Source of the DNA: Planctomycetota bacterium
Lineage (GTDB): Bacteria; Planctomycetota; MHYJ01; JACQXL01
Length of the DNA: 62,661 nucleotides
Assembly: GCA_038059695.1 (NCBI GenBank)
Contig: JBBTIZ010000004.1
Location: 1 to 62,661, forward strand
Direction of reading: 5' to 3'
Below are positions 10,492-12,614 of the stretch, piece after piece (within the stretch, counting starts at the first letter, position 1; each line of letters opens with the position of its first letter). The position numbers and the translations under genes were made by a program. The notes below the pieces were generated by a model that had not been told where the DNA came from, did not search any database, and saw nothing but the letters and a program-made list of their open reading frames with translations.

Positions 10492-11676
10492 CTACATTAT
10501 ATATCCAAGTATATAGATTACTAACTCCGTGGAATTATTCCCGGCCACATAAGCCAGCCAGGTCAGGGTCCGGTCGTCGGCCACCGGCATCAGGACCGAG
10601 CCGCCGTTAGATATGCCCGGCGCATTAACAGGCGGAACCCCGACCTGCAGGGCGTATTCCGCTCCAACCTGACGGTAGATGTAGGCCATCATCCCGCCGT
10701 TCACATAACTCTGGTTGATACAGGCGATGGACACAATCACCCCTTTGGTTCCCACCGGGATAATCGCGGAGAGGTCAACAGTGGCCGGCGCTGTGGTGGC
10801 AATAATACCGCCGATGTCAAGCGCGGTTACCGGCGCCGGGAACATCATCAGGGTATCGCCGCCGCCCACGCCCGGAGCCAGTTTCTCCTGCGTTATTGCG
10901 CCATTCTGTATTTTATTCGTTCCCACACTCGCATCTTGTATCTTATCACTTGTAACTGCATTATTTGCCAACTTGCTGCTGTCTACTACGTTAGCCGCTA
11001 TCTTATCACTTACCACTGCGCCATTGGCGATTTCCTCTGTTGCCACTGGCGGCGTTAATGGTCTCGTGGCCGCATTTGCCCATCTGAACCACCAGTAATT
11101 AGGACCTGTCTCGTCGTATACCGGCACCTGACCTGGTGTAGGCGGTGCGCCGGACAGGGTCTTGATTGACCTCGGCTCTAATGACTGGGACGCGATTTCC
11201 GAATACCCGACCGAATTAGGCGCGAGTTCGCTTGAGCCCACGGCATTAGCCGCAATCTTCGCCGCGGTTATGGTATTGGCCGCGATTTTGGCATTGGTTA
11301 CAGCCCCGTCCACCAAATCCTCGGTTCTGACGCTTTGGTCAGCCACCTTTTCCCTGGTGATGGCCCCGTCCCGGATTTTCGCCGTGGTAATGGCGCTGTC
11401 TTTGATGTCGTCCGTGGCCACTGAATTGGCCGCGATATGGTCTGAGGTCACGGCATTGGGCGCAATCTTGGTTGAGGTGACAGACGCATCCTTGATTTCC
11501 GCGCTGTCCAGCCCCGGGGTCAAAGGCCTTGTCACTGGCGTTATGGTCAGCTTATCAGGTGTGACCGAACCGTCTTTAATATTTCTGGTCTCTATTGCAT
11601 TATCGGCAATCTTTTCGCTGGTGACTGCTTTTGTAGCAATATTAACCGTCTTTACTTCTAATGGTTTTAATGACAT
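10492..11676 (-). CDS. Fibre-like repeat protein A (10-residue D/N-G/A-x-V/I-T-x-x-K-I/L-A repeats plus C-terminal beta-rich domain)
   Basis: More than 15 imperfect decapeptide repeats typical of tail-fibre/WIAG-tail-like shafts; GQVPVYD..W motif; C-terminal VDLSAIIP...ILGY domain; no signal peptide. Confidence 0.8.
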   Translation of the reverse strand: MSLKPLEVKTVNIATKAVTSEKIADNAIETRNIKDGSVTPDKLTITPVTRPLTPGLDSAEIKDASVTSTKIAPNAVTSDHIAANSVATDDIKDSAITTAKIRDGAITREKVADQSVRTEDLVDGAVTNAKIAANTITAAKIAANAVGSSELAPNSVGYSEIASQSLEPRSIKTLSGAPPTPGQVPVYDETGPNYWWFRWANAATRPLTPPVATEEIANGAVVSDKIAANVVDSSKLANNAVTSDKIQDASVGTNKIQNGAITQEKLAPGVGGGDTLMMFPAPVTALDIGGIIATTAPATVDLSAIIPVGTKGVIVSIACINQSYVNGGMMAYIYRQVGAEYALQVGVPPVNAPGISNGGSVLMPVADDRTLTWLAYVAGNNSTELVIYILGYIM

Positions 11677-11689
11677 AAATCAAATCTCT

Positions 11690-11760
11690 CTTAGTTACTG
11701 TTAGACCTTGGTCGTTACAGTAACTTAGACCCCGCAGAATTGCGGGGCATTCATTATTAT
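11690..11760 (-). other. Conserved structured intergenic element between the two module genes
   Basis: Homologous to 51101-51181 with compensatory stem changes. Confidence 0.7.
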
Positions 11761-11813
11761 AGAACGTGGTCGGATCCCGCTTGGGCGCCCAAGCGAGACC
11801 ACTCACGTTTAAC

Positions 11814-12614
11814 CTACACCATCACGACCTGAATCTCAAGTCGGAACAGCGGCTCTTCCCATATAAACACGCAATACGATTTTAAGGGGTCAACAGTCGG
11901 CTGGAAATCCACGTAAGCCGGGTCTTGCAGACCTTTAATGAAATCGTTAATCACAGTGTTATGCTGGGTAACAACCGCCGGGCTGTAACCGGCCTTGGTT
12001 ATCAGAACTCCGCTCTGGATGATTTTCTGAATCAATCCGGCCTTGAGCATTGTTCTTAAACCGGTCCGGGCAACATTGACAGGACCGCCCTTGAGCACCT
12101 CATCGGTATTCTCACGAAGCAATCCGCTTGCCCTGAGGTCGCCTGATAGCCAATAGCCTGAGATAGGCGCGGCGCCCAGCCCGCGAATCTTGTCCCCGGT
12201 CAGGCGCAAGGTCTTGGTTTCCACCTGGGTAATCCAGTTATCCTTGCTGTTCTGAACCTGGTCCTTGAACCGTTTGGCTTCTACGCCGTCCACCGTCTCA
12301 AAAGCTAATGCCACCTTGGCATCCCATTTATCGTAGGCATCCTTAAGATTGGCGCCCTGCATTGTAATGATATCTCCGCTGGTGCGCTCGCTCTTGGAAA
12401 CGAACGCCGGGTCAATCATCGGCCGCCACTTCTTGCTGGAGCCGTCAGCCAATAACTTCTCGAACTCTCCGGCATCCGGTATGCGAGTTCGGAGTTGCTG
12501 ATGCAGATGCGTGGCGCTATCGGACAACCGATTAGCCCAACGGTTTGCCATCTCATCAGAAATCGGCTGGACATTGGGAATACCTAACTTTACCAACGAT
12601 ACAACTTCTGGCAT
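11814..12614 (-). CDS. Uncharacterised 266-aa protein, paralog of 50245-51039
   Basis: AAGGAG RBS; shared motifs R.PD.G.F, DI.TMQ, AFE..DGV.AK.FKD, TLR.TG, GYWL.GD, GGP, KSYC with the second copy. Confidence 0.85.
   Translation of the reverse strand: MPEVVSLVKLGIPNVQPISDEMANRWANRLSDSATHLHQQLRTRIPDAGEFEKLLADGSSKKWRPMIDPAFVSKSERTSGDIITMQGANLKDAYDKWDAKVALAFETVDGVEAKRFKDQVQNSKDNWITQVETKTLRLTGDKIRGLGAAPISGYWLSGDLRASGLLRENTDEVLKGGPVNVARTGLRTMLKAGLIQKIIQSGVLITKAGYSPAVVTQHNTVINDFIKGLQDPAYVDFQPTVDPLKSYCVFIWEEPLFRLEIQVVMV

Follow-up and report, generated by a model that had tools for sequence, protein, structure and literature searches.

Two genes, one for a phage-like repeat fiber and one for a protein of no recognized family, stand side by side twice in one stretch of a bacterial chromosome, which raises the question of what such a pair builds and where it came from. 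The stretch (hereafter the window, i.e., the whole of the DNA that was analyzed) comprises 62,661 nucleotides (nt) from a Planctomycetota bacterium (GCA_038059695.1, contig JBBTIZ010000004.1; source assembly 1.27 Mb, 55% complete). We term the ∼265 amino acid (aa) orphan protein A and the decapeptide-repeat fiber B, so that copy 1 consists of A1 and B1, and copy 2 of A2 and B2. The best explanation, to which we assign a probability of roughly 0.45, is that A is an abundant base subunit carrying the B fiber, and that the pair descended from a mobile element or virus. An original prediction for this locus had likewise proposed a structural subunit with a diversified receptor-binding fiber. The subunit-and-fiber part stays the best reading, given the adjacency of the two genes, the clustering of B leader types with A lineages, the fusion protein P0162, and the lack of an enzyme fold in A, while the "diversified" part has to be given up. 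The four genes are as follows:

10492..11676, minus strand: B1, a 394-aa fiber with a type I N-terminal leader (MSLKPLEVKT), a decapeptide shaft, and an alpha-type head (..NNSTELVIYILGYIM)
11814..12614, minus strand: A1, 266 aa, alpha-rich; a strand opens the chain and a beta-hairpin closes it (open reading frame call and AlphaFold model)
50245..51039, plus strand: A2, a 264-aa paralog of A1
51199..52146, plus strand: B2, a 315-aa fiber with a type II N-terminal leader (MARILYDRINEIK), a decapeptide shaft, and a beta-type head (..ITFNPYVVGYVV)

All four of these open reading frames (ORFs) had been predicted and are present at these positions, and A1 and A2 are full-length homologs as first described (38% identity end to end, E 1e-62). 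The description of the module as being present twice was a large undercount, as the source genome alone encodes 12 canonical and 2 divergent A genes, along with 13 B genes. B lies directly downstream of A at 9 of the 12 canonical A genes, and three of the four B genes lacking an A sit at contig ends, where the partner may have been cut off. A 96%-complete genome of the same genus (G004) has 20 A-family genes, with B present at ∼11 of the 14 canonical ones, and adjacency was found in 13/18 in other metagenome-assembled genomes (MAGs). The co-occurrence of the two genes across genomes holds, with B directly downstream of ∼75% of canonical A genes overall.

The family is both narrow in distribution and highly amplified where it occurs. 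A is found in 12 of 16 genomes of the order, and the near-complete ones (2–3 Mb) hold 13–40 intact copies scattered across the chromosome. Among 301 sampled Planctomycetota genomes, the A family was present in six, all from one order, and was not found outside that order. The species-representative genomes with A matches are all groundwater or subsurface Planctomycetota/Brocadiia MAGs. An exhaustive profile search for A over 1.84 billion representatives returned just 260 clusters, and the 74 homologs of A1 are, without exception, ∼265 aa long and annotated as "hypothetical." The A paralogs are deeply diverged from one another (30–40% identity), all copies are intact, and orthologs are common to different genera; A is a set of old paralogs, kept intact at 13–40 per genome. 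From copy number multiplied by cassette length, the cassettes are estimated to occupy ∼1–3% of a 2.5-Mb genome. The surroundings of A in other genomes are ordinary chromosome (EF-G, S7, S12, and rpoC in locus L001; metabolic genes in L002), and the possibility that copies lie within complete prophages elsewhere, raised with the original prediction, is not borne out in these housekeeping and metabolic contexts.

Protein A has no family match in Pfam, PHROG, NCBIfam, PADLOC, or a PDB sequence profile, permissive per-member scans included. Its AlphaFold model, built on 38 diverse homologs, has a pLDDT of 93.3 and a pTM of 0.78. It places about twelve helices between a strand at the N-terminus and a beta-hairpin at the C-terminus, with ∼85% of residues in helix or coil. 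Foldseek comparison of this model with the PDB and BFVD yielded no match (best E 0.3–0.7, TM-score ≤0.25), and, as modeled, A appears to adopt a fold with no known relative in either collection. Neither a Pfam or PHROG profile nor Foldseek gave a match to an HK97-fold capsid or encapsulin, and at the Foldseek sensitivity used, HK97/encapsulin, flagellin-like, and SIRV2-type capsid folds are excluded for the predicted structure. The protein is soluble, rich in helix, and close to neutral: the family median isoelectric point (pI) is 8.1 (range 5.3–9.3), and A1 and A2 each have a pI of 7.8, with 33 K+R against 32 D+E. A known enzyme or housekeeping fold, which had been named as the finding that would speak against a structural subunit, was not among the matches. 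The only invariant residues are G140, G176, and N219, with none of catalytic type, and because these amount to two glycines and one asparagine, a structural role fits A better than a catalytic one.

The original prediction also saw in A a likeness to the DNA-wrapping capsid proteins of filamentous archaeal viruses such as SIRV2. The largely helical content of A is in keeping with this, as is an Hjc resolvase and a Cas4-like nuclease encoded on the contig of a distant A homolog (described below); both genes are also known in rudiviruses. Nevertheless, this identity is largely excluded, since the PDB, which holds such capsids, and BFVD returned nothing better than E 0.3 and TM-score 0.25 for a model of pLDDT 93, and A is twice as large as those capsid proteins. 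The median pI of ∼8 is not strongly basic.

The character of B is more readily recognized. The shaft has a 10-residue period, with peaks of BLOSUM self-similarity at lags of 10, 20, 30, and 40, which neither the head nor A shows, and it matches the tail fiber family phrog_892 (E 4e-46 for B1 and 1e-37 for B2), as well as ∼15 further tail-fiber PHROGs; the proposal that the repeats form a tail-fiber-type shaft is well supported. The repeats start 10–40 residues from the N-terminus and are preceded by a short leader alone; B has no virion-attachment N-terminal domain. There are three types of leader: type I (MLKPNEVKT), type II (MARILYDRLNEIK), and type III (YRRNYF..QVTTPQITE). Shafts differ in length, and the B proteins are mosaics of leader, shaft, and head. 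B is a short fiber of the phage-tail-fiber type, comprised of a 10–40 residue leader, a decapeptide shaft, and a ∼125-aa head modeled as all-beta. Between B1 and B2, the shafts are 47% identical, and the C-terminal ∼130 aa are ∼29–31% identical and still alignable as homologs. Similar shafts with strongly different C-termini had been predicted, and the first half of that statement stands; the heads themselves differ as two discrete, conserved types. These types, alpha and beta, are the ones found in the source genome, and at least four more occur in its relatives, each 75–90% conserved among paralogs and across genomes. Instead of a hypervariable receptor-binding domain, the head is drawn from a few conserved, swappable types.

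Swappable heads on a shaft that matches tail-fiber PHROGs could also be expected if the B genes were alternative host-range cassettes for a tailocin, a contractile injection system, or a prophage located elsewhere, with A as an adaptor. This is largely refuted by the genomes of the order, in which Baseplate_J was found in 0/16, tail sheath in 0/16, and an HK97 capsid in 1/16, while positive controls matched. Because baseplate and sheath genes are lacking in all 16 and the HK97 capsid occurs only once, there is no conventional machine for these fibers. Adjoining the two window copies, as first noted, there is likewise no capsid, terminase, or integrase gene, and the neighbors are restriction-modification (R-M) genes and a sigma54 activator. 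Since a conventional machine is lacking and A is the only constant partner of B, a base or shell role for A is the most economical reading.

That A and B belong together is further suggested by their patterns of inheritance. Mapped onto a maximum-likelihood A tree, the leaders of the downstream B proteins cluster strongly by type, and type III is contained in one well-supported clade; it requires 3 changes on the A tree, compared with 9.1 for shuffled labels, and 0 of 500 label shuffles were as low. Head type is not clustered on the same tree: near-identical A orthologs are followed by different heads (beta in L012 and alpha in L047), as are sister A paralogs (alpha in L005 and beta in L013). 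These patterns indicate that the leader is co-inherited with the A lineage, and that heads move between cassettes by recombination at the shaft-head junction (KLAPGVGG). The exchange of heads is confirmed by recombination footprints, comprised of two relics in the window and of 33-codon head relics that lie behind an identical 75-nt spacer, 3′ of two other B genes. The window relics are:

7575..7649, minus strand: solitary beta-type head 3′-end relic (..YAFTDAYGVVNVTFNPYVIGYVV*) without an upstream gene (tblastn, 80% identity; translation)
10411..10446, minus strand: alpha-type head relic, the last 11 codons and stop (ELVIYILGYIM*), with synonymous divergence, located 45 nt 3′ of the B1 stop codon

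A diversity-generating retroelement was considered and rejected as the source of head variation, in that the relics differ silently and lack an adenine-specific pattern, although no reverse transcriptase search was made.

A more direct connection is provided by a "Rosetta stone" protein, P0162, encoded on one circular element, in which A is N-terminal to a fiber-like C-terminal extension. In another protein, P0166, A is joined to a ∼200-aa beta domain. Two apparent fusions of a protease to A (P0108 and P0124) were discarded; in these the linker has the signature of a translated repeat and is followed by A's own start codon, and they are most likely read-through of an intergenic repeat. A gene for a membrane-anchored trypsin-like protease is located upstream of A in 9 of 44 loci.

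Immediately 3′ of nearly every A gene lies a strong GC hairpin, and the 110 nt after A stop codons have a median folding energy of -39 kcal/mol, compared with -25 kcal/mol for control genes. As judged from these predicted structures, the hairpin fits production of A in greater amounts than B. In the window, the two hairpins are:

11765..11807, minus strand: strong GC-rich hairpin directly 3′ of the A1 stop codon, a likely attenuator or 3′ stabilizer
51046..51092, plus strand: strong GC hairpin after the A2 stop codon (locus L004, -53.8 kcal/mol)

The tight adjacency of the genes, the pairing of each A lineage with a cognate B leader type, and the lack of enzyme-like invariant residues in A would also be expected if A were a dedicated chaperone for the folding or assembly of its cognate fiber, or an adaptor for it, similar to phage tail-fiber assembly proteins, with B alone being the functional adhesin. 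We regard this as unlikely. Known fiber chaperones are smaller proteins that are encoded downstream of the fiber gene, whereas A is larger and encoded upstream of B. Moreover, the attenuator-like hairpin between the genes implies that no less A is made than B, ∼25% of canonical A genes have no B, minimal circular elements encode three A paralogs and zero fibers, and in P0162 A is covalently fused N-terminal to the fiber.

The circular elements, which were reached via P0162, bear on the origin of the pair. They are represented by contigs of 6.4–8.3 kb from at least eight metagenomes, four of which (L015, L059, L061, and L062) close as circles with exact terminal overlaps of 127, 55, 141, and 127 nt. 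The contigs are circularly permuted relative to one another, and the types share 70–77% nucleotide identity. Their common gene order consists of three to four tandem A paralogs, a small transmembrane protein, a PLD-family nuclease, four small reverse-strand ORFs, and ∼2 kb without ORFs. Minimal circles have three A paralogs and no fiber, and the larger ones add a fiber extension, a CBM96 protein, or an Mtd_N protein, with the Mtd_N-type protein following the A genes in L015. Three orthologous groups (a, b, and c), conserved across elements, account for the circle A paralogs, which are therefore considered non-redundant. In some cases one of these paralogs is joined to a fiber or to a lectin-like domain. 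The PLD-family nuclease, CBM96, and Mtd_N domains are the only ones recognized, and no replication initiator, packaging, or capsid gene was recognized in the circles; Rfam gave no credible match in the 2 kb without ORFs. The A paralogs form the core of these elements, which are previously undescribed as far as the searched libraries show. Internal 51- and 100-nt repeats are present in L015, L059, L061, L062, and L064, where the PLD-family nuclease is the only recognizable enzyme.

A distant homolog of A (hhalign probability 99%) is encoded on a virus-like contig of 16.3 kb (L017; 35% GC), which is densely packed with genes of no known family. Alongside the Hjc resolvase and the Cas4-like nuclease, this contig encodes a Lon/BrxL-like ATPase and a protein whose N-terminus is of the receptor-binding type. 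Its host is clearly outside the Planctomycetota lineage considered here. Together with the A-based circles, this homolog upholds the part of the original speculation in which the pair was a domesticated, virus-derived module, insofar as A is linked to mobile or virus-like elements; the resemblance to SIRV2 that accompanied it is not upheld.

A bolder version of this origin is possible, although we consider it considerably less probable than the base-subunit reading: A would be the shell protein of unrecognized small (6–8 kb) circular DNA viruses, with a capsid built of three paralogs of a new, largely helical fold, and the order, with its reduced genomes, would have captured it, amplified it to 13–40 copies, and coupled it to phage-type fibers with exchangeable heads, resulting in a programmable repertoire of virus-like, fiber-bearing particles or surface organelles. 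Conversely, the cassettes could be remnants, decaying or selfish, of small viruses or satellites that once integrated, and have no host function. A is the core gene of small circular elements, both window copies lie in variable, R-M-rich regions, and relic fragments are present, all of which such a history would predict. We consider it improbable, as all 13–40 copies per genome are intact, paralogs that are only 30–40% identical have orthologs conserved between genera, and no integrase or attachment-site signature was seen at the cassettes. In addition, the circle A clade is sister to the chromosomal A proteins and is not nested among them, nor do the chromosomal A clades nest within it, and no other circle gene occurs in the chromosomes.

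In the base-subunit reading, A would be an abundant, self-assembling base or shell subunit, and B, as a trimer, would dock on A via its leader as a minor, outward-pointing component. The hairpin after A would set the ratio of A to B expression, and expression would be controlled locally, as in copy 2, which would be driven by a sigma54 promoter with a neighboring activator gene. The A-B pair would have originated as the structural module of a small element, viral or plasmid-like, and the host lineage would have multiplied and kept the pair as a repertoire of fiber-bearing assemblies for recognition or adhesion, or as virus-like particles. Assembly of A, binding of B to A, and the location of the complex are inferred from the genes.

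Several observations weigh against this reading. A quarter of the canonical A genes, and all of the divergent ones, have no B. Leader and A could covary through the linkage of neighboring DNA, without the two proteins being in contact. The AlphaFold model of the B head is all-beta with a pLDDT of 44, which is too poor to classify. Surface display of B is unexplained, because A and B lack signal peptides and there are no linked secretion genes; by inspection, as had been noted originally, neither protein has a signal-like N-terminal segment, and the N-termini of B (MSLKPLEVKT.., MARILYDRINEIK.., and M.YRRNYF..) have no hydrophobic segment. With respect to origin, none of the non-A circle genes were found in the chromosomes of the order, and a link between circles and host was not obtained, with no spacer-like or integrated match in the order and no host repeat families in the circles. 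Scans of IMG/VR with three single proteins and the VDGVEAK motif detected no relatives of A. Furthermore, the circles could be plasmids rather than viruses, because they have no recognized replication or packaging gene.

The nearest described cellular system is the MAT fiber family of Bdellovibrio bacteriovorus, in which 21 paralogs of ∼1000 aa start with a signal peptide, followed by a conserved N-terminal domain that is beta-rich and ∼130 aa long (PMC10769870). Both are large paralog families of cell-encoded, phage-like trimeric fibers (predicted to be so in the case of B) with mosaic, exchangeable C-terminal tips on a repetitive shaft. Unlike MAT proteins, B is ∼300 aa long, has no N-terminal domain and, by inspection, no signal peptide, draws its heads from a small set of conserved types, and has A as a partner, whereas MAT fibers stand alone. 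Similar to phage tail fibers (phrog_892, phrog_28766, and phrog_21412), B has a homologous shaft repeat (E 1e-37 to 4e-46) followed by a C-terminal head, but it occurs outside virion or tail modules, lacks the N-terminal virion-attachment domain, and is present in 13–40 chromosomal copies. Recombination of a distal domain at a conserved junction is also shared with phage cassette exchange (the lambdoid stf-tfa mosaics, and Mtd of Bordetella phage BPP-1), although here it occurs among chromosomal paralogs, and the changes in the relics are silent and without an adenine-specific pattern.

As far as the searched libraries show, A, the expansion of the A-B cassette, and the A-based circles are undescribed. 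If A is a self-assembling scaffold, it would represent both a new structural fold and a new cellular way to display phage-like fibers. Because they have been retained as old, intact paralogs, the cassettes probably play a central part in the way these uncultivated and possibly ultra-small groundwater bacteria interact with their environment, and in the 6–8 kb circles current virus catalogs may be missing a new viral or plasmid family. The modular design, in which A and leader form a cognate pair and heads are swapped at a conserved junction, yields directly testable hypotheses.

The neighborhood of the window copies suggests one further function. Copy 1 adjoins a Type III R-M system (Mod, and Res with an RE_endonuc domain; window 12869–17631), and copy 2 is preceded by a Type IIG Eco57I/MmeI-like R-M gene (window 44803–47346); the GC content of these R-M regions is 0.36–0.44, compared with ∼0.50 elsewhere. 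This proximity would be explained if the cassettes acted in anti-phage defense, as fiber decoys, superinfection blockers, or sensors, and the B repeats do weakly match PADLOC PD-Lambda-5_A (E 2e-9). A defensive role is nonetheless quite improbable, as this match covers only the generic repeat, A has no PADLOC match, no effector domain is present, and other copies stand beside housekeeping genes (the EF-G, S7, S12, and rpoC locus) or metabolic ones.

Local regulation is best seen at copy 2, for which a sigma54 circuit is predicted from a promoter with the -24 GG and -12 GC elements at the correct spacing, and from the adjacent gene for an enhancer-binding protein. The features upstream of A2 are:

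48290..49735, plus strand: sigma54 enhancer-binding protein, AAA+ Sigma54_activat and HTH_8 domains (Pfam E 1e-61), directly upstream of copy 2
49749–49766: perfect palindrome ttgcatagcactatgcaa, upstream of the sigma54 promoter
49895..49911, plus strand: consensus sigma54 promoter TGGCACgctatTTGCA (TGGCAC-N5-TTGCA), ∼350 nt upstream of A2
49961..50053, plus strand: 30-aa small ORF (MPKLISDFWKRVIRTVIEIVLTLIQKRINK), conserved 5′ of some A genes

A sigma54 site was found upstream of only one of the 14 A genes in the source genome (A2), and sigma54 control as a family-wide feature was ruled out on this basis. The small ORF, of ∼28 aa (FW(R/K)RVIRxVxEIVL), occurs upstream of A at 4 of 12 loci in the source genome, including A2, and in several relatives. 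Among nine copies, differences by codon position number 157/88/234, such that variation is concentrated at third positions.

The original prediction described a conserved intergenic element between A and B. The element is real, with a covarying stem and a conserved loop, but it is not specific to the module, as dozens of copies occur genome-wide, and an RNA element dedicated to the cassette was ruled out by this distribution. Three copies are associated with the window cassettes:

11691..11747, minus strand: REP-like double hairpin just before the B1 ribosome-binding site (from sequence; member of the genome-wide family), comprised of a GC hairpin, TCTAAG, a covarying stem around TAAC...CTAAC, and TAAG
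50079..50125, plus strand: REP-like hairpin copy in the 5′ leader of A2 (from sequence; family member)
51121..51185, plus strand: REP-like double hairpin before the B2 ribosome-binding site (from sequence; family member)

In the 1.27-Mb assembly, there are 27 matches to the core pattern, most of them genuine, and 30 copies sharing one stem sequence. Stems in this family covary around a fixed TAAC...CTAAC loop, and the elements are frequently located just before ribosome-binding sites. An identical copy is present in another MAG, and Rfam had no match for the hairpin. Similar to REP/REPIN-type elements, these are short, multi-copy extragenic hairpins found in both orientations and sometimes in tandem; unlike them, the stem covaries freely, the internal TAAC...CTAAC loop is fixed, and the position is often exactly before ribosome-binding sites. 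Three tandem variants lie on the minus strand between two plus-strand genes (window 59945–60130), and therefore the element occurs in either orientation and clustered. In two cassettes, on contigs C23 and C19 of the source genome, the place of the REP-like hairpin between A and B is taken by CACGAAT/ATTCGTG heptamer arrays arranged in mirror fashion.

Other repeats are also present in the window. Five tandem 44-nt units (ATACCCTAT...CCC; window 44218–44481) form a non-coding array just upstream of the Type IIG R-M gene, and similar phased arrays occur upstream of A in L002 (9100–9360) and upstream of B in contig C40. A dispersed 62-nt direct repeat (CGCTCCGATGCTCACGA..GGGGCGC) is found at window positions 6875–6936, 41241–41302, and 52912–52973; its copies are 84–89% identical, and one of them is located inside the region of a YgjP-like gene.

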